Part shown: positions 1-40,547 of the stretch, in pieces | How the letters are laid out: every line of letters starts with the position of its first letter | Numbering within the stretch: the first letter of the stretch is position 1 | Source: Patescibacteria group bacterium | Lineage (GTDB): Bacteria; Patescibacteriota; CPR2; UBA1875; CAIMLA01 | DNA length: 64,000 nucleotides | NCBI GenBank assembly: GCA_041738615.1 | Contig: JBGSPL010000002.1 | Location: 10,654-74,653, forward strand | Direction: 5' to 3' | Notes under the pieces: model-generated | Told to the model about the DNA's origin: nothing | Seen by the model: the letters and a program-made list of their open reading frames with translations, nothing else | Database searches by the model: none | Program-made: the position numbers and the translations under genes

Positions 1-5
1 AGCCG

Positions 6-527
6 ATGATCGTGGAAAACGCAGGAGTGATCATCATCGCCCAGATGGGCGACAAGGTCGCACTCGTGCGCAACTTCCGCATGATCGGTCCTCGCCTGTT
101 ACCTGACGCCGGCGCGAGCTACATCAAGAAGCTCAACGAGACGAAGTCCTGGAGCAAGCTCCTCGACTCTCTCGGCCGTTGGAGCATCGAATGCCCCCGC
201 GGGCTGGCTCCTGGTAACGGCGAGGAAGACATGGAAGCCTTCCTCATCCGTACGGCCAAGCTCGAGGTTCTCGAAGAGGCTGGTCTGACGATCAAGAACG
301 CTAAGGTCGTCGGCAACCTCAACGCGAACACCACCTTTTTCGCTCACGCGCAAATGGTGGTACTCGCCGAGATCATCTCCATTGGTGAGGCAAACCCCGA
401 AGATCTGGAGATCATCGGTGGCGTCGACCTCTACACGATGGCGGAGCTCCGCGAGCTCAACGACTCGGGCGAGTTCACGGACGGCCTTACCTTGGCCGCG
501 CTCGCGCTCTGCGGGATGCACATCTAG
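6..527 (+). CDS. NUDIX hydrolase (ADP-ribose pyrophosphatase-like), lies in a ~60% GC islet
   Basis: Translation contains a Nudix-box-like segment (EDMEAFLIRTAKLEVLEEAGL). GC is far above the window average. A hairpin terminator follows. Confidence 0.55.
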   Translation: MIVENAGVIIIAQMGDKVALVRNFRMIGPRLLPDAGASYIKKLNETKSWSKLLDSLGRWSIECPRGLAPGNGEEDMEAFLIRTAKLEVLEEAGLTIKNAKVVGNLNANTTFFAHAQMVVLAEIISIGEANPEDLEIIGGVDLYTMAELRELNDSGEFTDGLTLAALALCGMHI

Positions 528-555
528 CCCGCCGGGGCTTCGCAAGAAGTCTCAA

Positions 556-600
556 AAACCAAGAAGCCCCTGATCGCATTTGCGGCCAGGGGCTTTCTCG
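556..600. terminator. Bidirectional rho-independent terminator between Nudix (+) and galU (-)
   Basis: AGCCCCTG...CAGGGGCT inverted repeat followed by a T-rich tract. Confidence 0.5.
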
Positions 601-614
601 TTATTTAGAATTAG

Positions 615-1478
615 TTATTTGATAGTTCCCAGATACTCCCTAAAATCAGCGCCCAACTTCTTGTGGGTAAGGGCCATATGTACCGTCGCCTTAAGAAACC
701 CTAGCTTATCTCCCGTATCAAAACGCTCATCGGTGAGTTTATAAGCGTACATCCCGTCATTTTTGATTAGCTCTAAGATACCATCGGTTAATTGAATTTC
801 ATCCCCTGCACCCGGCTTCGTCTCCTCGAGATAGTTGAATATCTCTGGCTTCAGGACATAGCGTCCGATAACAGCATAGTTTGATGGAGCGTCTGCCTTT
901 GCGGGTTTTTCAATAATACCTTTGAGCGCGAAGGAATCCTCTTCGCTCCCGTCGATTGGATCCACAATTCCATACGAAGAGACCTTGTCTTCTGGAATTT
1001 CCTCAGTCAGAATTACTGACTTACCGCTTCTCTCAAAGACTTCAATCATCTGGCCGATACATGGTTTGGACCCAACCACCAGGTCGTCTGGCAATATCAC
1101 TGCAAATGGCTCGTCGCCGATAAAGTCCTTGGCGCGGAGAACAGCGTGGCCAAGCCCTAACGGCTCCTTTTGCCTAATATATACGATATTCGCCATATCC
1201 GAGATGCTCTTTACCTCTGCGAGCACGTCAAGCTTGCCCTTGAGTTCCAGAGTGTGTTCGAGTTCATATGAGTGATCAAAGTAGTCTTCAATCGAATTCT
1301 TGCCGCGACCGGTAATGATAATGATATCGGTAATCCCCGACTTTACCGCCTCTTCTACAGCATAGTGAATCGCGGGACGGTCTATTATCGGTAGCATTTC
1401 CTTAGGCATCGACTTGGTCGCTGGTAAAAATCTAGTTCCAAAACCCGCGGCGGGAATTACTGCCTTACGAACTTTCAA
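615..1478 (-). CDS. galU: UTP--glucose-1-phosphate uridylyltransferase
   Basis: N-terminal AIPAAGFGTRFLPATKSMPKEMLPI and overall length are typical of GalU. Confidence 0.9.
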   Translation of the reverse strand: MKVRKAVIPAAGFGTRFLPATKSMPKEMLPIIDRPAIHYAVEEAVKSGITDIIIITGRGKNSIEDYFDHSYELEHTLELKGKLDVLAEVKSISDMANIVYIRQKEPLGLGHAVLRAKDFIGDEPFAVILPDDLVVGSKPCIGQMIEVFERSGKSVILTEEIPEDKVSSYGIVDPIDGSEEDSFALKGIIEKPAKADAPSNYAVIGRYVLKPEIFNYLEETKPGAGDEIQLTDGILELIKNDGMYAYKLTDERFDTGDKLGFLKATVHMALTHKKLGADFREYLGTIK

Positions 1479-1480
1479 TG

Positions 1481-1945
1481 CTATTCTCCTGATTTAGGCT
1501 TAATAATCAACACGCGTTCTTTACCGACTCCCGTGGAGTCAGACGTCAGGCCTTCTCTGTCAGCGATACTGTGCACTAGCCGTCTCTCGTATGAGTTTAG
1601 TCCGGTGAGACGCTCCGGGAAGCCGCTGGTCTGCACCTTTTTGATGGCCTCCAGGGCCATGGACTCGGTACGGGCGTCCTTATTCTTCATATAATCACCG
1701 GCGTCGATGCGAAGCACAAAATCCTTGTCAACCTGGTGCCTTACCATAATCCCAAGGATGTAGGAGAAATCTGCCAGTGTTTCGCCGTGAAAACCGATAA
1801 TAATAGAGGTATCATCGCCAACCAGCTTTATCCTCACGGCCTCCGTGTCGGCGCTAACCTCCGGGTGCAAAGAGAGCTTCATCCCTCGTAGTAGATCTAC
1901 AGTGATGTCTTCAATTCTTTTCAGATCGCCGTGTGTTACTGCCAT
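1481..1945 (-). CDS. jag: KH/R3H RNA-binding protein Jag/KhpB-like (short form)
   Basis: C-terminal R3H motif (YERRLVHSIADREGL). Sits immediately downstream of yidC, as in yidC-jag operons. Confidence 0.75.
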   Translation of the reverse strand: MAVTHGDLKRIEDITVDLLRGMKLSLHPEVSADTEAVRIKLVGDDTSIIIGFHGETLADFSYILGIMVRHQVDKDFVLRIDAGDYMKNKDARTESMALEAIKKVQTSGFPERLTGLNSYERRLVHSIADREGLTSDSTGVGKERVLIIKPKSGE

Positions 1946-1947
1946 GG

Positions 1948-2799: not shown

Positions 2800-2893
2800 A
2801 TATTTCTTTCTACATTACACTACATCAGTGACCATTTTAGCACAGAATCTCGTCTCGGTTAAGTACCCCCGGCGAGGGCACGCAAACCCTGTC

Positions 2894-2935
2894 TTATCCC
2901 CCTAAATGTGGATAAGATAAAGGGGTTGTGGAAAA
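2894..2935. promoter_or_regulatory. DnaA-box cluster upstream of dnaA
   Basis: TGTGGATAA at 2907-2915 is a perfect reverse-complement of TTATCCACA. TGTGGAAAA at 2927-2935 has one mismatch. TTATCCCCC lies at 2894-2902. A TATAAT follows at about 2949. Confidence 0.6.
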
Positions 2936-3007
2936 CTATTTTTAGTACTATAATGAGCACAGATTTGACTAAATACGGGGTCTTGGGCGGCCCAAAAGAG
3001 GTGGAAA

Positions 3008-5748: not shown

Positions 5749-5764
5749 GGGAATACAGCGGAAA

Positions 5765-7460: not shown

Positions 7461-10158
7461 CTACATAAACTCCTACATGTATGTGGTTCGTATGTCCAGC
7501 AAGTGTCTGGGCAGAATAGTTGAAGGGTTTTCCGTTCCTTAAATTGTATTTATTTGCACTAACCCCAATCGCTGTATTCTTGTATATTAGTTCATCAATA
7601 CTGAGCTCATCAGCATGTGCATATGCCCAAGGCATTAGGGTTTTAGCCACGCTCTCATCACCTATATCGAAGGCGAGACCAATCCAGTGGAGGGTACCAG
7701 GCTTGTGTCCTGTTTTCATGACGGAAATTTCTAGGGGTCCTTTGTCCTTACTATCCAGGTAGTCTGCCATTTGCAGGGCGGTACGGATTGTTTGGGCTCG
7801 TACCTTACCGTTGGCAACATCACCGTCAATGTCACCTATGCTTTGTTTGGTGATTTTACCGACTTTACGATATTTTTTCCAAGTCTTGCGAAGCTCAGTG
7901 ATATCGCCGTCTAACGCTGCAGGATTATCCCCTGAGTCGTCTGTAGTATCGGTATCTACTTCCTCGGCGCAGTTATTATTTACAGCGGTACCTCCAGCCG
8001 CAGTAGGGTCCTTCCCATCAACGACGCGAACATGGAAGTGGTCATCATGTTGAGATAGTAGAGACATCTTTCCGGGGAGTTTCTTGTCGTCAGCATATTT
8101 ATTAACAGCGGTAACCACGGCTTGGTCGTAATAGAAGATAGTGTCTATAACGCCGGTGTCGATAAAGTCCTTTCCTAGCTCTATGGCGAGAGAGCGTTCG
8201 TAGTTTGAGTTATTTGAGTGACCCGGTAATGACATGAATAATTTACCTCTTGAGTAGATGTCTACGTCTATACCCTTTTTGTGACTTTTGTGTCCGGGTG
8301 CGTTCAGGTCTCCAACTCCAAACTTCTCCTCAGGGTGTTTGCTTGACCAAGTCTGCCCAACGGCAAGAATGGTATTAACTAGAGTTTTGCCTCCCCATTG
8401 CTGTGAAGGAGGTGAACCACCGTTGACGTTACGTTTGTAAAAGCTTGACTTTGGTAGCTGGTAGTAACCACTAGAGTTGGCTTTACCAAGGTCGTTTACA
8501 GTTGCTCCAGATTTTGGAAAGTATATTTCGACCCCGTCTGCTATCGCTATAGCTACTTTCTTTTGGTTTGAAGCGTCACCAATAAAGTCAGCGTCTTTTT
8601 TAACCTTCAAGCTAGCCATCTCGACTAAAGAAGTTGGGATGTTATATGTATAACCGAACCCGGCATTTGAAGGGTGTTCGCGGACTTCGCTTGGGTAAGC
8701 TGACCCGCTTGCATATGTTAACTTCGCAGCATCAAAGGCCTTGTTTAGGGCTTTGGCAAAACCGTTATCTTGTGAGATGGTTGAGTCTTTGCGTCTCGCG
8801 AAGTACTCTCCGTTAGCGCCTTTGGTGTCCCATTTATTCTTGATTACATCTGGGTTTGATCTGTAAAAGACAATGCCATCTTTGGGACCATTGCCGTCAT
8901 TGTGCAGCTTTATGATTGCGGTTGCATTCTTCTGTTTAGCTAACTGCCCTCGATCGTAGTTACTCATAAAGGTGTCAGCATTGTCTTTAGTAAGGATGGC
9001 GTCGTAGCCCCTGCTCTGTAGTTCGGTTTGAAGATAGTTGGCGACCTTTTGGTTAACTTCTCTTTCTGAGACACCATGGCCGGAAGTACCAGAGGTAGCG
9101 CCTGTTTTGCTTCTTAGCCAGTTTGCTAAGTCGTTGGCGTAGTCAGCAATCGAATTAGAACTGTCTAACTCACTTGGGTGTCCAGGATCAATAACTATAA
9201 CACTGCCATTAGCGGCATCTGCGCTTGCCTCGTCGCACTTTGTTGTTGGAAACGCCGCCGCCAGAGTTTGAAACATGAATAGCGTGAGGAAGAAGATAAT
9301 TATAGCGATAACGATAGAGACAACAAGTCCCCAACCACTGCCCAGAAATGCTGCAATACCGACCACAGTTTCAGTTTCAGCTGCTGCAGTTGCTGCTGCT
9401 GCGGCAGCCGTTTCCGCTGCAGCAGCACCCTCGGCGGCTTCTCCTAGCTTTGCGGCTTCGCCTCCGAGCTCTGCAGCCTTGGAGATGCCTGGACCTTCGG
9501 GCTTGGCTGGTCCCCCGGGGCCACCTTCCTTTTGGAATTCGGGGAGGTCGCTCTTTGCATCTGCGTCTTCGCCGATGCCCGGCTCTTCGTCGTCAGCTTG
9601 CTCTGCCTCCTCAGCGCGGTCCATCAGGTCGTTCTTATCGGCGTAGTTCTGCCGAGCGGCAGGGTCGGACGCTAAGTTGTAGCCGTCATCTGACTCCTCG
9701 GGCTTTACCGTCTCGTTGGGGTCGGTACTGCCAGCATCTTCTCCCGTATCTTCATCTTCTCCACCTGGAGCTTCCCCGTTTTCGGCTTCTTTCCCTTCCG
9801 CATCTGGTCTTCTGGTCTTACCGTCAGAGCGGTCTTTGCCTTGGCCGCTACCAAGGGGGTCTATCCAGTTGAAGGCGGGGCCGCCCGCTCCACCACCGAG
9901 ATAGTTTTCTAGTCCTTGCTGCTTCGCCCAGGACTTGTCGTCCATCAGGTCATGAGCAGCCCGATCGTCGGTTCCTGCTCTACGCCTATCCTTGGCACTG
10001 GTAAAACCTTCACGGCGAAGCTGACGTGCGGCCCAATCATGGGCATCATGCCAAACCTTGTCATCCATATGCTTACGAGGTTGGCCAATTAGCTCAGGAT
10101 GCCCCATGCCCCTGAGTCTTTCGTTGAACCAATAATCGTAATTTTTGTTGTTTACCAT
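7453..10158 (-). CDS. T4SS-associated bitopic cell-wall hydrolase: MurNAc-L-Ala amidase domain plus two LAS/M15-type metallopeptidase domains
   Basis: Acidic low-complexity and poly-Ala N-terminus, then a TM helix. An amidase_3-like motif follows (VIVIDPGHP...AIIKLHNDG). Two H-x6-D...H-x-H blocks follow: HKKGIDVDIY...HDDHFHV and TLHWIGLAFDIG...HTNHIHV. Confidence 0.65.
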   Translation of the reverse strand: MVNNKNYDYWFNERLRGMGHPELIGQPRKHMDDKVWHDAHDWAARQLRREGFTSAKDRRRAGTDDRAAHDLMDDKSWAKQQGLENYLGGGAGGPAFNWIDPLGSGQGKDRSDGKTRRPDAEGKEAENGEAPGGEDEDTGEDAGSTDPNETVKPEESDDGYNLASDPAARQNYADKNDLMDRAEEAEQADDEEPGIGEDADAKSDLPEFQKEGGPGGPAKPEGPGISKAAELGGEAAKLGEAAEGAAAAETAAAAAATAAAETETVVGIAAFLGSGWGLVVSIVIAIIIFFLTLFMFQTLAAAFPTTKCDEASADAANGSVIVIDPGHPSELDSSNSIADYANDLANWLRSKTGATSGTSGHGVSEREVNQKVANYLQTELQSRGYDAILTKDNADTFMSNYDRGQLAKQKNATAIIKLHNDGNGPKDGIVFYRSNPDVIKNKWDTKGANGEYFARRKDSTISQDNGFAKALNKAFDAAKLTYASGSAYPSEVREHPSNAGFGYTYNIPTSLVEMASLKVKKDADFIGDASNQKKVAIAIADGVEIYFPKSGATVNDLGKANSSGYYQLPKSSFYKRNVNGGSPPSQQWGGKTLVNTILAVGQTWSSKHPEEKFGVGDLNAPGHKSHKKGIDVDIYSRGKLFMSLPGHSNNSNYERSLAIELGKDFIDTGVIDTIFYYDQAVVTAVNKYADDKKLPGKMSLLSQHDDHFHVRVVDGKDPTAAGGTAVNNNCAEEVDTDTTDDSGDNPAALDGDITELRKTWKKYRKVGKITKQSIGDIDGDVANGKVRAQTIRTALQMADYLDSKDKGPLEISVMKTGHKPGTLHWIGLAFDIGDESVAKTLMPWAYAHADELSIDELIYKNTAIGVSANKYNLRNGKPFNYSAQTLAGHTNHIHVGVYVDE

Positions 10159-15220: not shown

Positions 15221-18058
15221 TTATTTCTGTCGTTTCTTTCCTTCCATTATATCCTTGATCTCTGCTACGGTGTCAGGTCTAAAGTTAGTAGCTCCAATCT
15301 CTGGATCTGTGGCGGCTTTGTACAGCTTGGTCATACGAGGAGCACCTTTTTTCTTTATCAGTTCGCTAGCCTGGAGGGGCGAAATATTAGAAGTGAACTC
15401 ATTTGCCAAGCCAGCCATGAGAACGTCTTGATCGCCTCCTGCTATGCTCCTGGTATCTAGCCCCCCATTTTTAATCTGATCGTTTTGGGCATCAACTTGG
15501 CCTCTCAGTTCTTTGGTTATTGGTTTGGCATAGTTTAATAGTCCACCAATTTCTGCCCCAGTAGATGCTGAAAGATCTCCATCTATCATCTTCTTTGCGG
15601 CCTTCCTTCTGAAGTCGGCAGTGACAGAATCGTTTTGACTACCAAAAATAAGTTCCTTGTGACTCTTGATGCCAAGGTTCTTCATGGCGTCACTCTTACC
15701 GATAAACTCATCAAATAGTCCCTGTGCACCCTGCTCGTTACCGTCTTTGTCAAGTACTGTGTTACCACCAAAGCGCTTCAATTCATTGGCATCCATGTCG
15801 AGTAGCCCTCGGCGCATTAGTTCTGTTGCCGCAGCCTCACGCGTATATTGGTCATGCTGTTTTCCTGTAAAAGACATAAGTTTTTCTTTTGAGGTACTTT
15901 CGTCGCCCATACCTGCGGCAGCATGGTGGGCTGCCACAGTTGCTACGTGGAGGTTATTTGCGGCCATTTGCCCTCTATTGCCGGCGACTCCTGTTGTGGC
16001 CCACGTAGAACCCGGGATGTTACTATTCGCGAGCTTATCCTGGAAGCCGAGCAGGTGGGCCTTGTCCTCTGCGGCTTGGTTCGCTCTTCTGTTTTCGAAA
16101 AAGCCCTTACCCTTACCAAGCATACGATTGACGGAGTACTTCCCTCCCACGCGGGTAGCTGCCCAGCCGGCACCTTTCAGGGCATTCCCCCCCGTAGCGC
16201 CCCAGAGTTTCTTGCCTGCGCCACTCCAGGATTTCATAATGCTGCCACCCCATTGCATAGGGAGAGTGGCAGCCATATATAGAGCAGCCGCAAAGATGAT
16301 TAGTCCTACCAAAGCACCCGTTCTGCCGGAAGAGCTGAAATCAGCAAGGGCAGCAGACGAGGTGAGGTCACTTGCTCCTTCATAACCGGCGCTGCTAGCT
16401 ATTAAGCCTCCGAGAGCAATGATTGCCATAGCGATCGGCCCCATGAACATCCACTTGAAGAATTCACTCCACCACTGCTTATACATATTGGCGGTGAATG
16501 GCATGATGTTTAGGATAAAGGCAAGCGGAGCTACTACTAGCAGGAAGCTAAGCATGACCATACGTATCAGAAGAGTAAAGAGTAGTACGATGCCACATGC
16601 GATGACTCCGAGCAGAATCACGATTACCATAATCAGTATGCCAAGGTTTGCTATAATGTCCCCCGTAGAGGGTGCGGATATGCTGAAGGAAGACAAAGTC
16701 CCTAGAATGTCTATGCCCCCAGCGAGACCTACGGCCTGGGCTTGTATCGCAGCGGTAAAGTCAAAAAAAAAGACTACGATAATCCAGCTAGCGTATGCCA
16801 TGACTATAGAAATGATGATACGGGGGATCATACGAGTAACGCCGTACTGCTCTAGGTTAATTTGCAGTACATTGGCAAAGGCAATAATAACGAGTGCCAT
16901 CACTAGCAGGGATAGTGCTACGTTCCTTACGCTGATCCATGGCCCCCGCATAGTTACCTCTTTGGCATTCCCGATATCTGCACCGACCTTGCCAACAACA
17001 AGGTCTGCAGTCCCAAGAAGCAAGGCATTGATTTGTTTCATGACAAACCCCAGGGTCGTTTCGACGCCGCTCATCACCCACTTGATAGCGTTGGAGATAG
17101 CCTTGTCTAGGGGGGAGTCAGTTTCTTGGGAAACAGTTATCCGAAACCCTGTGTACTTTTCGTCGGTATCAGGCAGTTGCTTACCGCCAATTGGAGATTT
17201 TGCCTCAGTGGTATCATTCTTGTCGGAAATTGTTACTTTTGCGTAGCCACCCTTTACGTAACTCAAGTGAAATGTTATTTCCCCAGTCAGAGTTGCAGTA
17301 CAGGAGATTTGGTCAGCTCCTCCACCCTTCATTTCTTTAGAGACGCAGTCGGCATGTTCAGAATATTTAAACTTTATCGTATAGTCGTCCTCGTAGATGC
17401 CTTTACCGCTGTTCATGGTTGGGATATCAAAAGACTGGAAATAGTATTTTCCACCTTCTTCATATACTTTCTTATTGCCAGTCGAGATCTTACCGCTCGT
17501 TTTGCTCCAAAGCTCGATCGTCCTGTCCTTCATTTGGACGGCATTGTTTTCGTTTACGCTGTCGTCAGGGATAAGCTGTCCTGTTATTTTGCCCTTTGTA
17601 ATAAGTTTTACTGGGGCCGACGCAACATCTTCGGGGTCGGAGATGGTAATTTTAACTGGCCTGCCGCCATTGCGATCTGTGTAAGTATAGGTACCGGTCA
17701 AGGGGTCCTCTGGGTCATATGCAATTATGGACCCCCATTGAGGGTTGGTTTTTTGTTCAAACTGCTCCACTAGCTGTTCATTAACATAACCATTTGAGCC
17801 GGCATTTGCCCAACCCTGGCTTAGAGCAGCGAGGCGCGGGCTTGTTATCGACAAAAACTTCGTGCCGCCACTAGGGCAATCAATTTCTTCTAGGCTGACC
17901 CAAACACAAGTAAAGCTTGATGAGCCGTCTGGAATCGCTGGTTCTTGCCCGGTGTTGTAAGTTTGAGCATGAGTAAAAAGCGGAAATACTAACGCAAACA
18001 ACAAAAAAGCACATATTTCTTTATAAAATACTGGCTTATTTGAAAACAACTTAGGCAC
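15221..18058 (-). CDS. VirB6/PrgH/TcpH-like polytopic T4SS channel protein (945 aa)
   Basis: Signal peptide, ~350 aa ectodomain, then 6 or more TM helices and a Gly/Ala-rich cytoplasmic tail. Position matches the Gram-positive T4SS gene order. Confidence 0.55.
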   Translation of the reverse strand: MPKLFSNKPVFYKEICAFLLFALVFPLFTHAQTYNTGQEPAIPDGSSSFTCVWVSLEEIDCPSGGTKFLSITSPRLAALSQGWANAGSNGYVNEQLVEQFEQKTNPQWGSIIAYDPEDPLTGTYTYTDRNGGRPVKITISDPEDVASAPVKLITKGKITGQLIPDDSVNENNAVQMKDRTIELWSKTSGKISTGNKKVYEEGGKYYFQSFDIPTMNSGKGIYEDDYTIKFKYSEHADCVSKEMKGGGADQISCTATLTGEITFHLSYVKGGYAKVTISDKNDTTEAKSPIGGKQLPDTDEKYTGFRITVSQETDSPLDKAISNAIKWVMSGVETTLGFVMKQINALLLGTADLVVGKVGADIGNAKEVTMRGPWISVRNVALSLLVMALVIIAFANVLQINLEQYGVTRMIPRIIISIVMAYASWIIVVFFFDFTAAIQAQAVGLAGGIDILGTLSSFSISAPSTGDIIANLGILIMVIVILLGVIACGIVLLFTLLIRMVMLSFLLVVAPLAFILNIMPFTANMYKQWWSEFFKWMFMGPIAMAIIALGGLIASSAGYEGASDLTSSAALADFSSSGRTGALVGLIIFAAALYMAATLPMQWGGSIMKSWSGAGKKLWGATGGNALKGAGWAATRVGGKYSVNRMLGKGKGFFENRRANQAAEDKAHLLGFQDKLANSNIPGSTWATTGVAGNRGQMAANNLHVATVAAHHAAAGMGDESTSKEKLMSFTGKQHDQYTREAAATELMRRGLLDMDANELKRFGGNTVLDKDGNEQGAQGLFDEFIGKSDAMKNLGIKSHKELIFGSQNDSVTADFRRKAAKKMIDGDLSASTGAEIGGLLNYAKPITKELRGQVDAQNDQIKNGGLDTRSIAGGDQDVLMAGLANEFTSNISPLQASELIKKKGAPRMTKLYKAATDPEIGATNFRPDTVAEIKDIMEGKKRQK

Positions 18059-18120
18059 CCTCCTTTGTTGAATTTATTATGAAGTATTTGATGAGCTCTT
18101 GCAAGGCTCAAAACGCGAAA

Positions 18121-18150
18121 GCGGCCACCACGGGATTCCGTGGTGGCCGC
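18121..18150. terminator. Perfect 13-bp-stem hairpin downstream of the high-GC ORF
   Basis: GCGGCCACCACGG gatt CCGTGGTGGCCGC, followed on the minus strand by a T-rich tract. Confidence 0.55.
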
Positions 18151-18171
18151 TAGGTGATGCCCGCGAAGCTG

Positions 18172-18618
18172 TTACTCGAGTATCTCTACCCATTTACCAT
18201 CGCGCTTTACGAGTGCCGAGATGCCGTGAGTCCCGTCAGCGCCGCTCCACTTGTAGACAGCCGTCGGTTCGTTGTCGACGGTGACGGTAATGCAGCGGAC
18301 CATGTCATCGGCGACCTGCTCGGCGAAACCGCCGGTGTAGAAGAAGTCCTGGATGTCGGTATCGGTCGCAGGGCGGAATTCCACGATTTCTGCGGTTGTG
18401 AATTCATGGATCTTCTGCCGTGCAAAAGGCTCGGCTTCTCGCAACAAAGCCTGCCTGTCGAGGGACTTCTTCGCCTCAGCGGCTTTGTTAGCACCAGCCT
18501 CGATTGCCTGGTTTGCCGTTTCTCCCGCTGGCTTCACGACTTCCTTGTAAAGGTAGGTCCCGAAGCCAAGTATGACGACTATGCCCACGAGGTAGACGAA
18601 CCACTTCGGGATCGCCAT
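18172..18618 (-). CDS. Hypothetical TM-anchored protein encoded in a ~60% GC islet inside the T4SS locus
   Basis: Probable start MAIPKWFVYLVGIVVILGF (TM helix) followed by a soluble domain. The plus-strand ORF 18154..18708 is judged a high-GC antisense artefact. Confidence 0.4.
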   Translation of the reverse strand: MAIPKWFVYLVGIVVILGFGTYLYKEVVKPAGETANQAIEAGANKAAEAKKSLDRQALLREAEPFARQKIHEFTTAEIVEFRPATDTDIQDFFYTGGFAEQVADDMVRCITVTVDNEPTAVYKWSGADGTHGISALVKRDGKWVEILE

Positions 18619-18837
18619 GGTTCCTCTGTGCTGGCTACCCGCAGGGCTTCCGTTCAAGTCGACCATGACAGCCTCCCTTGGTTTTGGCCCCCGCGGGGGC
18701 GGTGCTAGCGGACAATATACTTCCACGGCTACACATTTGTGAGCGCGTTGTTGCCTTGCTTGCCGCTATAATACAACAAAATTGGCGATATGGCAATGGT
18801 TTCTGTGAAGCCGGCAAACAAATTGATAAAATGAAAA

Positions 18838-18873: not shown

Positions 18874-19227
18874 TTAGTTAGTGATTACGCCACCTATGTT
18901 CTGGCGGATAAATCCAACGATGACGAACGATAGTAGGATCACTACAAGCCCGACGACTGCGTAAAGGATGGTACTCTTTGCGGCTTCGGCACGCTTCTCG
19001 TTGCCTGACGCAGTGATGTACTGTAGGCCGCCTACAATCAGGAAGAGCACAGCTACTACAGCCGAGAATCCTAGTACCCATCCGACGATGTCAGCAAGTA
19101 CCTTCCCGATAGTCAGTGAGCTGTCGTCCACTGTTATGGGAGTGATTGAGCTTGGTGTTTCTGCAAAGGCAGGGGTTGCTGCGAGTAGAGCGAAAGCAGC
19201 CAGGCTGATTTGATTTAGTTTTTTCAT
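18874..19227 (-). CDS. VirB2/TrbC-like T4SS pilin paralog 1
   Basis: Signal peptide plus two TM helices with a conserved GGLQYITASGNEKRAEAAKSTILYAVVGL core shared by all five paralogs. Confidence 0.7.
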   Translation of the reverse strand: MKKLNQISLAAFALLAATPAFAETPSSITPITVDDSSLTIGKVLADIVGWVLGFSAVVAVLFLIVGGLQYITASGNEKRAEAAKSTILYAVVGLVVILLSFVIVGFIRQNIGGVITN

Positions 19228-19255
19228 GTTTCCTCCGTTGTTTATATATTAACTT

Positions 19256-19642
19256 TTAGGACGCTTTTGTTATTGGTATCATGGCTTGAACTACTAGCTG
19301 CACTATCACATATGCTAGTAGTATTACTATAAGTCCCAGCACTGCGTAGGTCAAGGTTTGCTTGGCAGATTCTGCCTGCTTCTCGTTTCCTGCTGCTGTG
19401 ATGTACTGGATGCCGCCCCAAATGATGAAAAGAACTGCAATGGTTCCAGCAAATCCTAGTATCCAGGTTGTAATGTTGCTGATTATTTTGGCAAGGTCGG
19501 ACGTAGTTCCAGTCCCATCTGAGCCACAGGGTGTGATCTCACCGGTTACCCTGTTATACCCACATGCCGCCTGTGTTACTACTGGAGTAAGTGAAGTGAC
19601 ACCCCCGAGGGCAAGTAGCGACAATTTAGAGTTTAGTGACAT
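19256..19642 (-). CDS. VirB2/TrbC-like pilin paralog 2
   Basis: Core GGIQYITAAGNEKQAESAKQTLTYAVLGL. Confidence 0.7.
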   Translation of the reverse strand: MSLNSKLSLLALGGVTSLTPVVTQAACGYNRVTGEITPCGSDGTGTTSDLAKIISNITTWILGFAGTIAVLFIIWGGIQYITAAGNEKQAESAKQTLTYAVLGLIVILLAYVIVQLVVQAMIPITKAS

Positions 19643-19662
19643 GGTTTGTACCTCCTTATTGT

Positions 19663-20007
19663 TTAGTATGGCATCGAGCCGGAGAATACTGCACCAACAA
19701 AATCCCCAGCTATAATGTTTAATATTACGGTTGATAGTAGAACTGCAATTAATCCAATAATAGCATAAGTGAGGGTTTTTTTTGCATCCTCTAAACGTTT
19801 GGGGTTACCGGCAGAAGTCACTAGCTTCACGCCACCAATAACGATAAAGAGCACCGCTATAGCGCCGGCGATTCCCAGCAGCCAGGTACGAACAAATTTT
19901 AGAAATCCATCTAGGCTAGTGCCTTTGTATGTGTCTAGTTTGGCCGCGAAAGAGTAGCTGGGCATGGCTGCAACCGCAATATATAGCATTAGACTTAGCT
20001 TCTTCAT
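19663..20007 (-). CDS. VirB2/TrbC-like pilin paralog 3
   Basis: Core GGVKLVTSAGNPKRLEDAKKTLTYAIIGL. Confidence 0.7.
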   Translation of the reverse strand: MKKLSLMLYIAVAAMPSYSFAAKLDTYKGTSLDGFLKFVRTWLLGIAGAIAVLFIVIGGVKLVTSAGNPKRLEDAKKTLTYAIIGLIAVLLSTVILNIIAGDFVGAVFSGSMPY

Positions 20008-22133: not shown

Positions 22134-22220
22134 ATGCGGCCGCACAAGAATAGACTGGATGCGATATGTTGTAATGTTTGGATATTTAGCCACGAACCGC
22201 TCATTTGTATGCGGCCGCAT
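22134..22220. promoter_or_regulatory. Two copies of the palindrome ATGCGGCCGCA(T/C) in the Hsp20 / regulator divergent promoter region
   Basis: Copies at 22134-22145 and 22209-22220. The second overlaps the putative -35 of the regulator gene. Confidence 0.5.
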
Positions 22221-22867: not shown

Positions 22868-22879
22868 ATGCGGCCGCAT
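22868..22879. promoter_or_regulatory. Third ATGCGGCCGCAT palindrome, upstream of comFC
   Basis: Exact 12-mer match; flanks (tctATGCGGCCGCATcatatta) resemble copy 2. Confidence 0.45.
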
Positions 22880-29220: not shown

Positions 29221-29982
29221 TTATCGTAGAGTTCCACCCCATACCTGCCAAGCAAGAAGCGCCTTGGCAACTAGTGAGAAGGTGATGTAAGCGTACTCAC
29301 CGTAGAGGTAATCCTGCCATTTACCAATCTTTTTGTATTGAAGAATCATATTTACCGAGAAGACGTTGAAGGCGATAAAAAGGCTCCAAAAGATTGCGTA
29401 GACAAAGTTAGGGACAGCATCTCCACCGGCGGCAAGGGCATTATAGAAATATAGTCCCATCACTACCCATGGCATCGCCCCGGCAAAACAACCGAAAAGA
29501 TACGCAGTCCAGTCGGTCTTCTTGGTGGTTTGGTTGTGGACTTCCATCATCCAGCCAAAGAGAATCATGCAGGCATTTAGTGAGAAGATCAGAATTAAGG
29601 TAGATAAATCGTAGATACCACAAAGTATGGCAATCACCACGACCATCATCGAAGATGTGATAGCATACTCTGCCCAGCGAAATAGATTGATGCCCTTCTG
29701 AATCTGCTCTTCGTACTTTTTGCGCCATACGAAAGCATTACCGAGTAGAAATAGCCCAGAAAGCAGTAGAAATGAAGCCACGATAGGACCGAGGCGCCAC
29801 TGCGCAAAATTCGCGACTAGGGTGGTTGGCATTCCTGGAATATTACTGTTCTTGCCTAGGTAGCTAGTAGTAATTTGTGCGGCGCTGTCGTTTGAAATCG
29901 CCCACATTAGCACACCCTGTGCAAACAGTAGTACTCCGACTACAGAATTGTAGATCCAGAGATTATTTAGTTTCTTTTCCAT
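29221..29982 (-). CDS. Heliorhodopsin (seven-TM retinal protein, inverted topology)
   Basis: As recalled (not searched), extensive identity to heliorhodopsin 48C12. Examples: NLFRWAEYAITSSMMVVVIAILCGI, NACMILFGW, FGCFAGAMPW. The Schiff-base lysine sits in YAYITFSLVAKALLAWQVWGGTL. Confidence 0.85.
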   Translation of the reverse strand: MEKKLNNLWIYNSVVGVLLFAQGVLMWAISNDSAAQITTSYLGKNSNIPGMPTTLVANFAQWRLGPIVASFLLLSGLFLLGNAFVWRKKYEEQIQKGINLFRWAEYAITSSMMVVVIAILCGIYDLSTLILIFSLNACMILFGWMMEVHNQTTKKTDWTAYLFGCFAGAMPWVVMGLYFYNALAAGGDAVPNFVYAIFWSLFIAFNVFSVNMILQYKKIGKWQDYLYGEYAYITFSLVAKALLAWQVWGGTLR

Positions 29983-33527: not shown

Positions 33528-33544
33528 GCTAGTGCTCCTTTTAT

Positions 33545-33712
33545 TTAAAAAAAATCCCCACTGCTTAGGGGCTCTCGCGAGCGGTACCACCCTAATTCTG
33601 TGCGGATACTTACTTTCCTGCTATTACGGGCTTACCCGTCTAGGTCTACTTTGCCTTTGCAAGGGCATTTCTGCTAGAAACTTACTGGTGACTGGCCAGC
33701 TCAAACGTTTAT
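33545..33712 (-). promoter_or_regulatory. T-box riboswitch leader of valS
   Basis: Reverse complement of 33579-33597 is AATTAGGGTGGTACCGCTC, a 17/19 match to the T-box consensus. A GC hairpin plus a T8 terminator lies at 33547-33575, then the SD. Confidence 0.7.
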
Positions 33713-33718
33713 GTGCAA

Positions 33719-33747
33719 ATTATACAACGGTAGGTGTAGGTAGTCAA
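33719..33747 (-). promoter_or_regulatory. Consensus sigma-70-type promoter for the valS T-box leader
   Basis: On the minus strand: TTGACT, a 17 nt spacer, then TATAAT. Confidence 0.6.
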
Positions 33748-33814
33748 TGGGCATTGACAAAACTCGTATAATGTGTTAGTATAAATAGTCCTGATATTCA
33801 GGGCCCTTGAAAGC

Positions 33815-34192
33815 TTGCCCGCCTGGCGGCGGGAAGATGTATCGGAGAGTCAAATGTATCTGCCTCCGGAGCTCGGCTCCCCGCTCAGCTACACGTACCT
33901 CGGCCTCACGCTTTTCGCATCATGGTCTTTTTACCTCCTTCTGTGGAAGGTCGTCAAGCATCGTGTTTGGCGCGTCGCTGTCTCCCTGGCAGGTCTCTGG
34001 GCGGCATTGTCGCTGCTGATCCAGATCATGGCACTTCTCCAGCACGGCAGCCAGCACGAATTCTGGTTTACCGTCGAGGTAGTCGTCTTGACGGCAGCCT
34101 GGGTCTGGGTTGGTCCTACGATAGAGATGCTTGGGGCTGATCTGAAGGCAATTTACAGGAACGCTGGCCGCGTGAGCGACCGCAGTTCTTAA
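33815..34192 (+). CDS. Hypothetical 3-4 TM membrane protein in a ~62% GC islet
   Basis: Long ORF with hydrophobic helices; strong GC contrast with its flanks. Confidence 0.35.
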   Translation: MPAWRREDVSESQMYLPPELGSPLSYTYLGLTLFASWSFYLLLWKVVKHRVWRVAVSLAGLWAALSLLIQIMALLQHGSQHEFWFTVEVVVLTAAWVWVGPTIEMLGADLKAIYRNAGRVSDRSS

Positions 34193-34291
34193 CCACCCAC
34201 TCTCGCGAACAAGTAGCTAGAAGCACGGCTTTCAGGGTCAACCGCCTCGTCCTTACCTATCTCATAGGTATTGGCCGGGGCGGTTTTCCAT

Positions 34292-35356
34292 TTACGCTAA
34301 TTTGTAGTTTGGGTCAGGAGTAAGGTCTTCTGGGTTTGTATAATCACTAATTTGGGCATGAAAATAGGCGGCGGCCGCGATCATGGCGGCATTATCGGTG
34401 CAACACGTAGGCTCCGGGTAAAAGAATTTCGAGTTTTGTGTTCCGAGTTTCGACTTGATCTGTTCCCTCAGGGAAACGTTGGCTGCCACGCCCCCAGAAA
34501 GTAAGATTGATGTTGGCTTGTGCTTTGTAACTGCACGTACGAGGTTGCGGGCCAATATCTCGTTTGCAGTGTATTGGAAAGAGGCTGCAATATCGGCTTT
34601 TTCGGCTTCGCCGAGGGTGTTGCCTTGTTTCTCGAGTTCTCTTACCTTGCGGATGACAGCACTTTTGAGCCCAGAATATGAAAAGTCTAGAGACTCCTCA
34701 GCTTCAACCATAAAGCCGTCTACACCTCTTTTGGGCGCTGCGGTCAGATCGACTAGAGGAAATGCGTATTTGTGTTTGTCGCCTTTTTGGCTTAAAAAGG
34801 ATATTAACGGCCCTCCTGGATAACCAAGTCCGAGCAGCTTGGCGACCTTATCGTAAGCTTCCCCAGCCGCGTCGTCGTGTGTTTCGCCGATGATCTTGTA
34901 CTCCAGGTGGCCTTTCATATAAAGCAGGTTGGTGTGCCCACCGGATACCGTTAGGCATACTAGAGGAAATGTGGGTACGTTGTTATCGTCTTTGTGCAGC
35001 CAATTAGCGTACACATGACCTTCCGTATGGTGAACCGCAATTAGTGGTTTCTGATGCAATAGTGCTAGAGTGCGAGCAGTATTTACCCCCACAATCAAAG
35101 AACCCACAAGGCCAGGGCCCTTGGTAACTGCTATCGCATCGATGTCTTCCCAGGTAACTGCAGCCTCGCGCAGGGCTTCGTCTAGCACTGGTATCATATT
35201 TTGTATATGGGCTCTTGCGGCGACTTCTGGTACCACCCCCCCATACTGAGAGTGTTCTAGCTGGGTAGCCACAACCGAACTTAGGACATAAGTGCCATCC
35301 TCAACGATTGCAACCGAGGTGTCATCACAGCTTGTTTCAATAGCAAGTATTTTCAT
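34292..35356 (-). CDS. tsaD: tRNA N6-adenosine threonylcarbamoyltransferase TsaD (Kae1/YgjD)
   Basis: MKILAIETSCDDTSVAIV N-terminus; conserved His pair HHTEGH. Confidence 0.9.
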   Translation of the reverse strand: MKILAIETSCDDTSVAIVEDGTYVLSSVVATQLEHSQYGGVVPEVAARAHIQNMIPVLDEALREAAVTWEDIDAIAVTKGPGLVGSLIVGVNTARTLALLHQKPLIAVHHTEGHVYANWLHKDDNNVPTFPLVCLTVSGGHTNLLYMKGHLEYKIIGETHDDAAGEAYDKVAKLLGLGYPGGPLISFLSQKGDKHKYAFPLVDLTAAPKRGVDGFMVEAEESLDFSYSGLKSAVIRKVRELEKQGNTLGEAEKADIAASFQYTANEILARNLVRAVTKHKPTSILLSGGVAANVSLREQIKSKLGTQNSKFFYPEPTCCTDNAAMIAAAAYFHAQISDYTNPEDLTPDPNYKLA

Positions 35357-35418
35357 GCGGTAATATTACCACAAATCACTCTGCTAAACACAAAATTGTG
35401 CGCGAATGTTCTATTCTG

Positions 35419-35430
35419 ATGCGGCCGCAC
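35419..35430. promoter_or_regulatory. Fourth ATGCGGCCGCA palindrome, in the tsaD / femAB divergent region
   Basis: ctgATGCGGCCGCAcagg. Confidence 0.4.
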
Positions 35431-35438
35431 AGGAATGA

Positions 35439-37771: not shown

Positions 37772-38074
37772 GTATATTTGCCTTGCTGAAGCAAGGTGTA
37801 CTCGATACTTTTGCCCATAGTCACAAAAGCCCGTCCGAATTGGTAGTCCGGGCGGATATCCAAAAAGACATTTTGAATGCGTCGAGCTGAGGCTCTCCGC
37901 AACGGCTAGCCATATATATTTATAAATCAATGACCAACTGCTATTTGTGACAAATCCAAGAAATCTATCTGCGGGCGGTTGATTCTGTGCTGGTTTGTGC
38001 TTGACAGGATAGATACTGGGGTGTATTATTACGAGTCGCATTAAATCTGGTGGGTATTAGTTTCGGGAGCCATT

Positions 38075-39700
38075 ATGGAGTTATCACCAAAGCAGCAGAT
38101 TGCTGAACTAGTAAAGAACAACCAGAGAATTCTAATCGTTGGGCATAAAAACCATGGCGGAGATTGTGTCGGTTCGATGCTTGCCCTTGAGAGCGTTCTC
38201 ACCGCGCAGGGAAAAGAAGTTGGGCTTGTACTATCAGAGATGATAGACCAGACCCTACTGTTTTTGCCGAATGTGGATCGAATTCAACGAGATGTCCCTG
38301 CAAGAGATCTCATAATCCAGATAGATAAGGCCAAGAACGACGTCGAAAAGATTGGCTACAACGAAGATAATGGCATTCTTAGTATTGTGATCTCTCCTAA
38401 AGGGAAGCTACTTTCGGCAAAAGATCTAAAGATCGTAGCTGGTAACTATAACTATGACCTGATTATCGTGCTCGATACACCTGACGTAGAGAAGATAGAC
38501 AGTGTTTATGATAAGTACACTGAGCTTTTCTTCGAAGTGCCGATAATTAATATCGACCACCACAGTGGTAATGACTATTTTGGCACCGTGAACCTTGTGG
38601 ACATGACAGCGACCTCTACTGCGGAAATTCTGGTCTCAATCATCGAAGCGATGGGGCCAAACTACTTTGATGCAGACGTAGCTACCTGCTTGCTCACTGG
38701 GCTTATAGCTGATACAGCTAGTTTCAAGAGCACGAACACGACTCCAAAATCACTTACTATTTCTGCGCAGATGCTCGCGGCCGGGGCTAGGCAGCAAGAA
38801 ATTATCCAGAACTTATACAAGACTAGACCACTGCAGACCCTGAAGCTTTGGGGCAAAGTGCTTTCAAATATTGTTTATGACCATGAATATCGGATGGTTG
38901 TCTCCGTTGTGCCAGGAAGTGACCTTGTGGACGCAAATGCTTCTCCAGAAGCAGTAAACGGCGTCCTGGACGAACTGCTTGCTAGTGCGCCAGGTACTGA
39001 TGTCGTATTAGTTCTGACAGAGGAAAAGAACCGAGTCTACGGATTCCTAAAGGGGCTAAACGGACAAGACGTTCTCTCTCTGGCAGAGAAATTTGGAGGT
39101 CATGGGAATGCCTTGGCATCTTCTTTTGTGCTGCCAAACTCTACTATCGATAAAAACACAGCTGCCATTCTAGAAAAGATTAAGTTGCTGCGTAACAATC
39201 AGCTAGGTAAAGAGAACTTAAGCGCAGTAGAAAAGGTTGCTCCCGAGCAAGCTACTCCGAAAAATGTGCACCCGAAGGTCGTCGAGAATCCCTCTCGTAT
39301 ACACGAACACGAGAAGGTAATCGTAGAAGTTGACCTCAAGGCGAAGAGTATTGAGGATCTGAATGAGCTGCTCTCTATCGAAAAATTGATAGAATCGGAA
39401 CATACAGTGGAAGTAGAGCCAATCTTTGAGGAGCTATTTACAGAGAAACCGCTCGTGCCAGTGAACGTAGAGGTTCAGCCTGCGAATGATGACATCGAGA
39501 AAGCCTTGCAGTCAATCGATTTCGAAATTGAAAGCGGTGGGACACCAAAAAATGAAGTTACGCCAAATATCGATGTTGAGGATGTGAGGGACAAAAAAGA
39601 AGCCCTTCGTCAGCTGGGTGATGTTATGCGAGGCTATACTCCAGGGAAGGCCCTAGACGAAAAGGGAAACCAACCGATAGACGCTAAGCTTTGGAAGTAA
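38075..39700 (+). CDS. nrnA: DHH/DHHA1 phosphoesterase (NrnA-like nanoRNase) with a ~200 aa acidic C-terminal extension
   Basis: DHH motif (NIDHHSGND) and a DHHA1-like region (GGHGNALASSF). A TTGACA-17-TATTAT promoter lies at about 38000. Confidence 0.65.
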   Translation: MELSPKQQIAELVKNNQRILIVGHKNHGGDCVGSMLALESVLTAQGKEVGLVLSEMIDQTLLFLPNVDRIQRDVPARDLIIQIDKAKNDVEKIGYNEDNGILSIVISPKGKLLSAKDLKIVAGNYNYDLIIVLDTPDVEKIDSVYDKYTELFFEVPIINIDHHSGNDYFGTVNLVDMTATSTAEILVSIIEAMGPNYFDADVATCLLTGLIADTASFKSTNTTPKSLTISAQMLAAGARQQEIIQNLYKTRPLQTLKLWGKVLSNIVYDHEYRMVVSVVPGSDLVDANASPEAVNGVLDELLASAPGTDVVLVLTEEKNRVYGFLKGLNGQDVLSLAEKFGGHGNALASSFVLPNSTIDKNTAAILEKIKLLRNNQLGKENLSAVEKVAPEQATPKNVHPKVVENPSRIHEHEKVIVEVDLKAKSIEDLNELLSIEKLIESEHTVEVEPIFEELFTEKPLVPVNVEVQPANDDIEKALQSIDFEIESGGTPKNEVTPNIDVEDVRDKKEALRQLGDVMRGYTPGKALDEKGNQPIDAKLWK

Positions 39701-39788
39701 TTGAGCCGAGATAAGGGGCCATACTGGCCCTAGATTTCGTTTCAAAGGGAAACGGGAGTAGTACCCCGACTAGCTGGGAGGCGAGGGC

Positions 39789-40103
39789 ATGCTGGAGGTT
39801 ACCGATAGCAATTTCCAGGAAACAGTGGAAAAGCAGGGAGACAAGCCGTTGTTCGTCGATTTCTGGGCACCTTGGTGCGGCCCATGCCGCATGATGGAGC
39901 CGGTGTACAAGGAGCTTTGCGCCGAAAACCCAGAACTTGCATTCGGACGGGTGAACGTCGACGAGAACCCCGATCTGGGCAGGCGATTTGAGATCCTTTC
40001 GATTCCGACGGTCCTCGTGTTCGTCGGCGGCAGGGTGGTCAAGAAGTGCGTCGGCGCGATGCCGAAAAAGTGGTTCCAGCAGGAATTCGCAGAGTGGCTG
40101 TAG
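39789..40103 (+). CDS. trxA: Thioredoxin (in a ~60% GC islet)
   Basis: WCGPC active site, 104 aa. Confidence 0.85.
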   Translation: MLEVTDSNFQETVEKQGDKPLFVDFWAPWCGPCRMMEPVYKELCAENPELAFGRVNVDENPDLGRRFEILSIPTVLVFVGGRVVKKCVGAMPKKWFQQEFAEWL

Positions 40104-40143
40104 CCATATAAGCCACTACTCAGGCGCCAAAGGAGGTGTAGGC

Positions 40144-40434
40144 GTGGGAGCACATTTCGGATACGTCGCCTTCATGGTGGTTCGGGGTGAGAAGCGATAT
40201 CTCTGCTTCCGGGACGGAGGCGAGGTCATCGATCTTGACCGCCTGAGGATGCTCAAGCGAGCAGCCTCAGTACCATGCAAGGAGGCCGATGCTGACGCGC
40301 AAGCGCGACTGGAGACGCTCACTGTCAGCATCAAGGATGACGGCAAACTGACCTATGACGGTGGTAAGGCCCACCCTCGGTCAGTTCCCGCCAAGATCGA
40401 AGTCTCGTACTTCGAATGGAGACTGAGCCCTTAA
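40144..40434 (+). CDS. Hypothetical protein (high GC; GTG start with an AGGAGG SD)
   Basis: ORF in the same GC islet as trx; no recognisable motif. Confidence 0.3.
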   Translation: MGAHFGYVAFMVVRGEKRYLCFRDGGEVIDLDRLRMLKRAASVPCKEADADAQARLETLTVSIKDDGKLTYDGGKAHPRSVPAKIEVSYFEWRLSP

Positions 40435-40547
40435 CGGGCGGTGATGAAGTGGTGAGCCCACCTCTAGGTGTGGGACACCGAAGACCCCTGCGGCTAGAAG
40501 GCGACGAGCACTCTAGCCGCCTTTCGTAAATAAGGTACAATATAACT

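Follow-up and report, generated by a model that had tools for sequence, protein, structure and literature searches.

The 64,000-nucleotide (nt) stretch analysed here, called the window, lies on contig JBGSPL010000002.1 of a Patescibacteria group bacterium (assembly GCA_041738615.1, positions 10,654 to 74,653) and carries four short islets whose guanine plus cytosine (GC) content exceeds that of the core genes (Table 1). These islets are probably old, partly ameliorated and exchangeable accessory units of an environmental Saccharibacterium, occupying variable slots. It can be proposed that each islet is a self-contained unit of one or two genes with its own Shine-Dalgarno (SD) sequence and terminator hairpin and, once (islet 3), its own promoter. 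The slots are intergenic and flanked by core genes that are conserved and collinear (beside GalU, and at pilins/TrbL, the LeuRS leader/TsaD and DHH/TruB). They would be hot spots of turnover that, in relatives, are empty, filled with another GC-rich cargo or occupied by the same cargo in diverged form. Recombination through the conserved flanks may allow the units to pass from one Saccharibacteria lineage to another. Their genes would have come from GC-richer pools and drifted partway to about 47% GC, a drift that is documented for the thioredoxin gene of islet 4 and proposed by extension for the others. The sources appear to be mixed: Actinomycetota/Coriobacteriia-like for the thioredoxin, a family found across the Candidate Phyla Radiation (CPR) for the Nudix-like gene of islet 1, and a native hypervariable locus for the islet-2 gene, which stands in the slot of a type IV secretion system (T4SS).

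The closest genome found, hereafter the sister genome (GCA_964501135.1, uncultured Candidatus Saccharibacteria bacterium binchicken_co269_59; loci L006 and L008), is collinear with the window at about 80% nt identity, and all four islet positions differ between the two. In core genes, nonsynonymous substitutions per site (dN) between them range from 0.01 to 0.17, and synonymous substitutions per site (dS) are saturated (1.4-3.4 or incalculable). A third Saccharibacteria genome (GCA_964511435.1, locus L055) and further relatives (locus L057, and locus L059 from another sample) were also compared.

Composition of the Islets

The window has 47.4% GC overall (profile in 300-nt windows: mean 47.4%, standard deviation 4.0), and not the 45% background of the original prediction. 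Its 62 core genes, taken as the reference for codon statistics, have 46.6 ± 2.6% GC and a GC content at third codon positions (GC3) of 0.490 ± 0.051, with a maximum of 0.613. The four islets that had been predicted do stand out, with 57.6-60.0% GC over their spans and 300-nt peaks of 59-60%, but none reaches over its span the 62% first announced. The jumps are abrupt and coincide with gene boundaries, GC rising over 60 nt from about 0.37 to values of 0.62-0.65 (for instance, 0.37 to 0.65 from 18060 to 18120, and 0.38 to 0.62 at 33760-33820).

Compared with the core genes, the five islet genes deviate by z scores of +4.0 to +5.1 for whole-gene GC and +3.1 to +6.3 for GC3, and only +0.8 to +3.2 for codon positions 1 and 2. 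The GC signal of the islets is real, far beyond chance and mainly synonymous. The ratio C/(C+T) is 0.82 in islet genes versus 0.52, and G/(G+A) is 0.74 versus 0.54. Since C- and G-ending codons are both enriched, the mutational background is shifted rather than the preference for a single codon. Codons are used in the islets much as in a contig of 65% GC, but in a damped form.

Structured RNA was considered as a source of the high GC and rejected: Rfam gave no family in any islet (gathering threshold over the whole window; E ≤ 1 for three islets), and a tRNA scan found none within or at any islet, the tRNAs of the window lying elsewhere.

Two equally GC-rich stretches that the original prediction had not listed, at 9201-10125 (peak 63.7%) and 15876-16450 (59%), are a different phenomenon. 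Their excess falls on codon positions 1 and 2 (GC at positions 1/2/3 of 0.70/0.51/0.51 and 0.57/0.55/0.54, respectively), and they encode low-complexity protein segments rich in Gly, Ala, Pro, Asp and Glu that are conserved in relatives, the former in a cell-wall amidase and the latter in a TrbL/VirB6-like protein. The former stretch (minus strand), which has the highest local GC of the window and keeps 74% nt identity in the sister genome, encodes the N-terminal ~300 amino acids (aa) of a 901-aa amidase_3/M74-like cell-wall hydrolase, an acidic, Gly/Ala/Pro-rich region that precedes a membrane segment. In the sister-genome counterpart of this hydrolase, the downstream domain is Peptidase_M23.

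Table 1. Positions, composition and main characters of the islets and of the features within them.
Feature	Position	Strand	GC	GC3	Remarks
Islet 1	1-600		60.0%
Nudix-like (ADP-ribose pyrophosphatase/NudE-like) gene	1..527	+	60%	0.81	last 173 codons
GC-rich hairpin	562..598	.			between convergent Nudix-like and GalU genes
Islet 2	18090-18730		58.3%
Terminator hairpin after islet-2 gene	18121..18150	-			GCGGCCACCACGG...CCGTGGTGGCCGC then T-rich run
164-aa bitopic membrane protein gene (P0180)	18172..18666	-	57%	0.70	ORFan
Promoter-like site, leader and SD of islet-2 gene	18667..18796	-			promoter-like site 18766-18796; ~95-nt GC-rich leader; SD 18664-18679
Islet 3	33800-34280		57.8%
Predicted sigma-70-like promoter	33754..33782	+			TTGACA-17-TAGTAT with TG; in segment absent from sister genome
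112-aa protein gene (P0182)	33854..34192	+	57.5%	0.70	three hydrophobic segments; SD
Imperfect hairpin and T-run	34240..34289	.			from islet-3 ORF to tsaD 3' end; terminator-like, right edge of islet 3
Islet 4	39720-40500		57.6%
Hairpin just past DHH-family gene	39715..39731	+			left edge of islet 4; present in sister genome, absent from L057
Thioredoxin gene	39789..40103	+	57%	0.75	104 aa, WCGPC motif
96-aa open reading frame (P0183)	40144..40434	+	58%	0.65	strong SD AAAGGAGGTG; called on Logan contig L001
Terminator-like hairpin before truB	40490..40526	+			right edge of islet 4

The gene calls made from the sequence were borne out. The thioredoxin is recognised by PF00085 (E 4e-27, 94.6 bits, cutoff 23.5) and by TIGR01068 (103.7 bits, cutoff 96.8), and the two membrane open reading frames (ORFs) encode 164 aa (minus strand) and 112 aa. 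Each gene has its own SD, as had been described, and a downstream hairpin; however, the islet-1 gene, also described as complete, is incomplete in the window.

Islet 4: A Thioredoxin Unit Between DHH and TruB

Islet 4 (39715-40526) is made of a hairpin, the thioredoxin gene, a 96-aa ORF and a terminator-like hairpin. The corresponding slot between the DHH and TruB genes is empty in L057, where it measures 41 bp. In the sister genome (L008), it holds 1.7 kb with 54-60% GC, consisting of four other small ORFs and a thioredoxin gene (58% aa identity), without the 96-aa gene. In L059, the order thioredoxin, 96-aa gene, TruB is the same as in the window, with aa identities of 74, 89 and 71%, respectively, and GC3 is 0.71 and 0.68 in the first two genes versus 0.45 in TruB. 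The four small ORFs of the sister islet (L008 11680-13000; 104, 86, ~92 and 69 aa, two of them with hydrophobic segments) matched no Pfam, NCBIfam, PHROGs or PADLOC family. As for the 96-aa protein, it had no match in PHROGs, PADLOC, IMG/VR, INPHARED phages or PLSDB plasmids, and its AlphaFold2 single-sequence model is unreliable (pLDDT, the confidence score of the model, 50).

The histories of cargo and flanks differ. Thioredoxin pairs the window with L059 (58-59% identity to the sister genome), whereas TruB pairs the window with the sister genome (78% versus 71%). The cargo follows the thioredoxin grouping, as the window and L059 share thioredoxin plus the 96-aa gene and the sister genome has other cargo. 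In addition, dS of the 96-aa gene between the window and L059 is 0.6 while truB is saturated. This discordance suggests that islets are exchanged between Saccharibacteria lineages. Horizontal gene transfer into Patescibacteria, mostly from other Patescibacteria, has already been described (PMC12455944).

With its 104 aa, WCGPC motif and scores above the curated cutoffs, the islet-4 thioredoxin is like bacterial TrxA (TIGR01068/PF00085). Unlike its relatives in trxB-trxA operons, it stands without adjacent trxB, in a variable islet, and evolves fast (dN 0.32 versus the sister genome, where core genes show 0.01-0.17). Among its top 120 matches, all nine named ones are Coriobacteriia or Actinomycetota (metagenome-assembled genomes, MAGs), with 55-58% identity. 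The best unnamed matches (61-66% aa identity) lie on clearly non-CPR contigs of 60-65% GC that also carry trxB-trxA and hypF/C/D. In a neighbour-joining analysis of 119 sequences, 115 of 200 bootstraps unite the thioredoxins of the window and of the sister genome to the exclusion of all others, although in raw distance each is nearer to the high-GC set than to the other. The exclusive clade and the shared left junction favour one old acquisition followed by fast divergence. Moreover, an identity of 61-66% and the presence of the gene in three lineages whose core dS is saturated indicate an old event. A high-GC Actinomycetota- or Coriobacteriia-like source is thus plausible in view of the homologues, and the thioredoxin islet would be a modest case, open to dating, of a high-GC donor passing genes to a Saccharibacterium.

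The original prediction had gone further and suggested that all the islets could have been acquired recently from an Actinomycetota host of high GC. Saccharibacteria live on Actinomycetota as epibionts and are naturally competent, and the nearest named thioredoxin homologues, the 60-65% GC of the contigs carrying the best matches and the damped high-GC codon usage of the islets all speak in this direction. The part that stands is the source, weakly supported and for the thioredoxin only; recency is contradicted by the 66% maximal identity and by the sharing of the thioredoxin islet among three saturated lineages. More generally, islet genes common to lineages with saturated synonymous sites point to old acquisitions rather than to recent transfers from host to epibiont. 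The other islets bear on the same question.

Islet 1: A Nudix-Like Gene Beside GalU

The islet-1 gene begins upstream of the window, so that the left edge of the islet is unseen; the full protein (P0006, 243 aa, 100% identical) has its first ~70 codons upstream of position 1. The Nudix-like and GalU genes converge on a hairpin that is likely, from its sequence, a bidirectional terminator marking the right edge of the islet. The alignment to the sister genome stops at position 670, within GalU. There, islet 1 is absent, and galU is followed instead by a ferredoxin gene of 40% GC.

On sequence criteria, the protein appears to be a distant relative of Nudix and ADP-ribose pyrophosphatase-like proteins. 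Its match to the NCBIfam NudE model (4.4e-6) is far below the cutoff, that to an ADPRase of the PDB has an E value of 0.05, and Pfam NUDIX (PF00293) weakly matches 7 of 32 family members (best E 0.006), P0006 itself being unmatched. The canonical Nudix box is GX5EX7REUXEEXGU; the family alignment shows a degenerate form of it (..AKLEALEEAGF).

Forty homologues were found, with 41-65% identity. Among the five with organism names, four are CPR/Patescibacteria (Falkowbacteria, Parcubacteria, Patescibacteria group, Spechtbacterales), one is from Obscuribacterales, and none is from Actinomycetota; a sixth labelled homologue carries only a functional label from the Joint Genome Institute (JGI), MutT/NUDIX. 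Homologues that, where named, are mostly CPR and that are GC-rich in their own genomes run counter to a recent acquisition of islet 1 from Actinomycetota.

The gene-versus-flank comparison was relied on for the Nudix-like loci, gene-by-gene GC3 ranking being noisy (greedy ORF picking, wrong-strand ORFs). Of 31 loci, 29 show a gene richer in GC than the sequence around it; the excess averages 8.5 points and ranges from about 0 to +18.5, a spread that fits arrivals of different ages. It looks native in contigs of 58-67% GC, and its excess is near zero in some low-GC genomes. In the nearest homologue (65% aa, GCA_027372325.1), the gene has 63% GC and a GC3 of 0.84 next to neighbours of 45-53%; the two closest members (65% aa) both have a GC3 above 0.8 in genomes of 47-50% GC.

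Of 35 metagenomic loci, at least 12 have a GalU-like nucleotidyltransferase gene within a few kb of the Nudix-like gene, which makes the placement of islet 1 functionally coherent. The family is recurrently found beside a GalU-like or a mannose-1-phosphate-guanylyltransferase-like nucleotidyltransferase gene, on contigs of 38% to 67% GC (loci L015-L049). This neighbourhood suggests a role in nucleotide-sugar turnover.

Islet 2: A Hypervariable Gene in the T4SS Locus

The islet-2 gene, which has a strong SD, sits between the last VirB2-like pilin gene and the TrbL/VirB6-like gene. A three-way alignment shows its promoter and leader to be conserved in the sister genome, even though no alignment is possible between the coding sequences. 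In the leader (window 18667-18760, minus strand; L006 7375-7476), a small hairpin keeps its pairing with a changed sequence (CACAAAUGUG versus CUAUGCAGCGCAUAG), and the folding energy of the leader is unremarkable (z +0.97 and -1.12). The sister slot encodes an anchored protein of 179 aa that is non-homologous (BLASTP E 33; 55% GC, GC3 0.65).

Among 1.84 billion representative proteins, the islet-2 protein has a single other match, P0181 (E 2e-6), restricted to the anchor region, and no homologue outside Saccharibacteria. P0181 occupies the identical slot (five pilins, gene, TrbL_3) of the third genome, with 55% GC and a GC3 of 0.67 versus 0.29-0.49 in its neighbours. The locus is mosaic: the window has its promoter and leader in common with the sister genome and its anchor in common with the third genome, and each of the three has a C-terminal domain of its own. 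On these sequence comparisons, the islet-2 gene is best regarded as a native, hypervariable gene of the T4SS locus, and not as host DNA, contrary to what recent acquisition from Actinomycetota would require.

Taken over all four islets, recent transfer from an Actinomycetota host is very improbable. In addition to the low identity and the shared lineages of the thioredoxin, the named Nudix-like homologues are almost all CPR, the only homologue of the 164-aa protein lies in a Saccharibacteria T4SS slot, and islet proteins have no match in phage, plasmid or viral collections.

The AlphaFold2 model of the 164-aa protein (pLDDT 69) shows an N-terminal anchor, a long helix and a small alpha/beta domain, with no significant fold match in the PDB (weak top matches: NTF2-like CaMKII hub domains, E 0.3). 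In conjugative T4SS operons, entry-exclusion or variable specificity genes are found just upstream of VirB6/TrbL (TrbK of IncP, Eex of pKM101), and VirB8 is a bitopic component with an NTF2-like periplasmic domain. Like TrbK, Eex and VirB8, the islet-2 protein is small and N-terminally anchored, and its gene, hypervariable between close relatives, lies immediately upstream of a TrbL/VirB6-like gene. Unlike them, it shows no sequence or significant structural similarity to these proteins in Pfam, NCBIfam and fold searches. By analogy, the resemblance to entry-exclusion or VirB8 proteins may serve as a lead only.

Variation in this region extends to the neighbouring genes. In the TrbL/VirB6-like protein (945 aa), the N-terminal ~300 aa (17109-18058, minus strand), which are probably extracellular as judged from the sequence, are unalignable with the sister genome and not GC-rich, the remainder being 86% identical. 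They vary along with the adjacent slot gene and the two may form a co-evolving pair. Three to five VirB2-like pilin paralogues are arrayed nearby (window 18874-20007, minus strand; L006 5177-7264; L055 3778-5828), with very uneven conservation between relatives (97% aa identity for one, 73% for its neighbour).

The T4SS of CPR lack a relaxase and their function is unknown; they are akin to monoderm conjugation machinery, located near dnaA, and their VirB8-like components are reportedly hard to detect (bioRxiv 10.1101/2025.01.22.634366). According to a report cited in that study, the only CPR bacterium examined in this respect needs its T4SS to grow as an epibiont. The slot between the pilins and TrbL is therefore a candidate determinant of partner specificity.

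Islet 3: An Insertion Between the leuS Leader and tsaD

Islet 3 is a clean insertion of ~545 bp (about 33750-34295) relative to the sister genome, where it is absent and where the 3' end of tsaD and the promoter of the leuS leader are nearly adjacent. Its predicted promoter is back to back with that of the leuS T-box leader. The 112-aa protein had no match in Pfam, NCBIfam, PHROGs, PADLOC, INPHARED phages, PLSDB plasmids or IMG/VR.

The adjacent leuS T-box leader (33564-33714, minus strand) matches Rfam RF00230 over the full model with 31.8 bits (E 3.9e-5), far short of the gathering score of 93, and contains the AATTAGGGTGGTACCGC T-box motif. Over its ~150 nt, identity with the sister genome approaches 100%, versus ~80% genome-wide. 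The listed start of the 738-aa leuS ORF (33590) overlaps the leader, and the sister gene encodes 722 aa; this start is probably over-extended.

Assembly Artefact or Genuine Sequence

The other explanation put forward in the original prediction was an assembly artefact, in which contaminant reads of high GC would have been built into a contig of Saccharibacteria. The compositional steps are indeed sharp, and islet 3, found in this genome only, is the sole islet without independent confirmation, P0182 being recorded only from the NCBI assembly. An artefact is nevertheless extremely improbable. Logan contig L001, which probably derives from the same reads but a different assembler, is 100% identical to the window over 12,224 nt (37880-50103), with both islet-4 junctions inside, and a Logan assembly likewise has records of the proteins of islets 1 and 2 in identical form. 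Homologous or positionally equivalent GC-rich genes occupy the slots of islets 2 and 4 in four assemblies from other samples (L006, L055, L008 and L059). Moreover, the islets rejoin the collinear core on both sides where visible, they are complete transcription units with coding periodicity, and two precise junctions would be required per islet.

Amelioration or Maintenance of the GC Excess

Amelioration combined with turnover of the slots, the reading that we consider probable, is favoured over an active upkeep of the GC excess. For the thioredoxin trio (window, L059 and sister genome), polarised synonymous changes comprise 12 from strong to weak base pairs (S→W) and 3 in the reverse direction (W→S); truB, taken as a control in the same genomes, gives 33 and 42. 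The S→W excess of the thioredoxin corresponds to decay from a more GC-rich state, as amelioration predicts. The excess at third positions, the 12:3 ratio towards AT in the thioredoxin gene and the equilibrium of the neighbouring truB are all like the amelioration of Lawrence and Ochman.

Alternatively, the islet genes could be long-term residents of Saccharibacteria and other CPR whose GC3 is upheld by selection on codons or mRNA, or by GC-biased gene conversion at loci of frequent recombination. Several observations are consistent with this possible but doubtful explanation. The T4SS-slot gene has a GC3 of 0.65-0.70 in three genomes despite the turnover of its coding sequence, and has a native promoter and leader; the thioredoxin GC3 stays at 0.70-0.78 in three lineages at pairwise dS of 1.0-2.0; the Nudix-like family exceeds its flanks almost everywhere, with the two closest members still above 0.8; and the discordance between islet and flank histories indicates recombination at these loci. 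However, the 12:3 bias of the thioredoxin is that of decay and not of equilibrium, and the Nudix-like gene is nearly ameliorated in several low-GC genomes. S15 and the pilins, likely highly expressed, have ordinary GC3, so that a general codon bias linked to expression is not evident. The flanks that would recombine have no GC enrichment of their own, and GC changes abruptly at the islet boundaries. Finally, the hypervariable N-terminal region of TrbL, with its ordinary GC, shows that fast evolution alone does not raise GC.

A more specific scenario, in which a long-lived, GC-rich pool of tiny cassettes without mobility genes is swapped between lineages at fixed intergenic slots, a hypervariable specificity gene of the T4SS locus among them, and its GC3 actively maintained by biased gene conversion or selection, is rather unlikely. 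More speculative still is the idea that the GC-rich codon usage would be an adaptation for expression in, or interaction with, a high-GC host.

Several points weigh against old imports undergoing amelioration and exchange. The thioredoxin GC3 of 0.70-0.78 in three lineages at dS 1.0-2.0 requires either a starting GC3 of at least 0.9 or a maintaining force. The S→W excess amounts to 15 sites, and parsimony inflates changes from common to rare states. The proximity of the thioredoxin to Actinomycetota is deduced from nine named matches at 55-58% identity to a 104-aa protein. For no islet gene was a donor sequence above 66% aa identity found, and neither the 164-aa ORFan nor the putative ORFans of 112 and 96 aa are traceable to any donor. 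At no islet was an integrase, transposase, flanking repeat or tRNA target present. The native promoter and leader of islet 2 are hard to square with a foreign import, and fit allele replacement or very fast divergence better. Such replacement or divergence does not, however, explain the GC-richness of the islet-2 slot in three genomes.

Comparison With Known Systems

The islets are flexible-genome islets, which have been described before and do not amount to a novel system. Like genomic islets and flexible genomic islands, they have an atypical composition, are present, absent or replaced at fixed positions between collinear core genes, and carry small accessory or ORFan cargo whose history is discordant with that of the flanks. 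Unlike known genomic islands, they are very small (0.5-0.9 kb, and 1.7 kb in the sister genome), and unlike the classical ones they have no integrase, tRNA target or direct repeats. In most bacteria, accessory DNA is AT-richer than the core; here, the islets are GC-richer and the excess persists across saturated lineages. With respect to a simple model of amelioration, the decay of the thioredoxin GC3 is slower, unless the donor GC3 was at least 0.9. What is unusual is the tiny size, the lack of mobility genes, the GC above that of the core, its persistence, and the location of one slot between pilins and VirB6/TrbL.

Mobile elements were also considered. All the islet ORFs are accounted for, and none is a recombinase in Pfam or NCBIfam. 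Shared border repeats and MITE-like (miniature inverted-repeat transposable element) or integron-like structures were looked for at the islets and not found. Concerning integron cassettes, the 3' hairpins have no sequence in common, the islets are not connected by any repeat family, and no integrase is present in the window, a dedicated attC model not having been run. A phage or plasmid origin was set aside in view of the absence of IMG/VR matches for the 164-, 112- and 96-aa proteins and for the Nudix family, and PHROGs and PADLOC gave no match for ten islet proteins (window and relatives).

Three causes of local high GC are separated here in one small CPR genome, namely low-complexity regions, a hypervariable gene of the T4SS locus and partly ameliorated imports. 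This calls for caution in composition-only screens of CPR MAGs for contamination or host genes. The accessory genome of this Saccharibacteria clade would reside in a few fixed intergenic slots and exceed the core in GC, contrary to what is usual in bacteria.

Other Features of the Window

The window includes the replication-origin region (yidC, jag, dnaA and dnaN) and a T4SS-like cluster with the VirB2-like pilin array, TrbL_3, PrgI, TraC-like and VirB4-like genes. It further contains a heliorhodopsin gene, tRNAs, leuS with its T-box leader, tsaD, femAB and genes for a Mur ligase and the DHH protein, as well as truB, rpsO and pnp. The heliorhodopsin gene (29221-29982, minus strand; PF18761, E 2e-87) is 94% identical to the copy of the sister genome and suggests a light-exposed, environmental Saccharibacterium.

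A palindrome with the core of a NotI site, ATGCGGCCGCA(T), is present four times (22134-22144, 22209-22220, 22868-22879 and 35419-35429), in intergenic or promoter-proximal positions, against 0.04 expected, and 0 of 100 shuffles attain this count. Three of the sites flank a gene whose sister-genome counterpart has a PaaX_M domain, and the fourth lies just upstream of femAB. From its sequence and distribution, the palindrome is possibly an operator motif.

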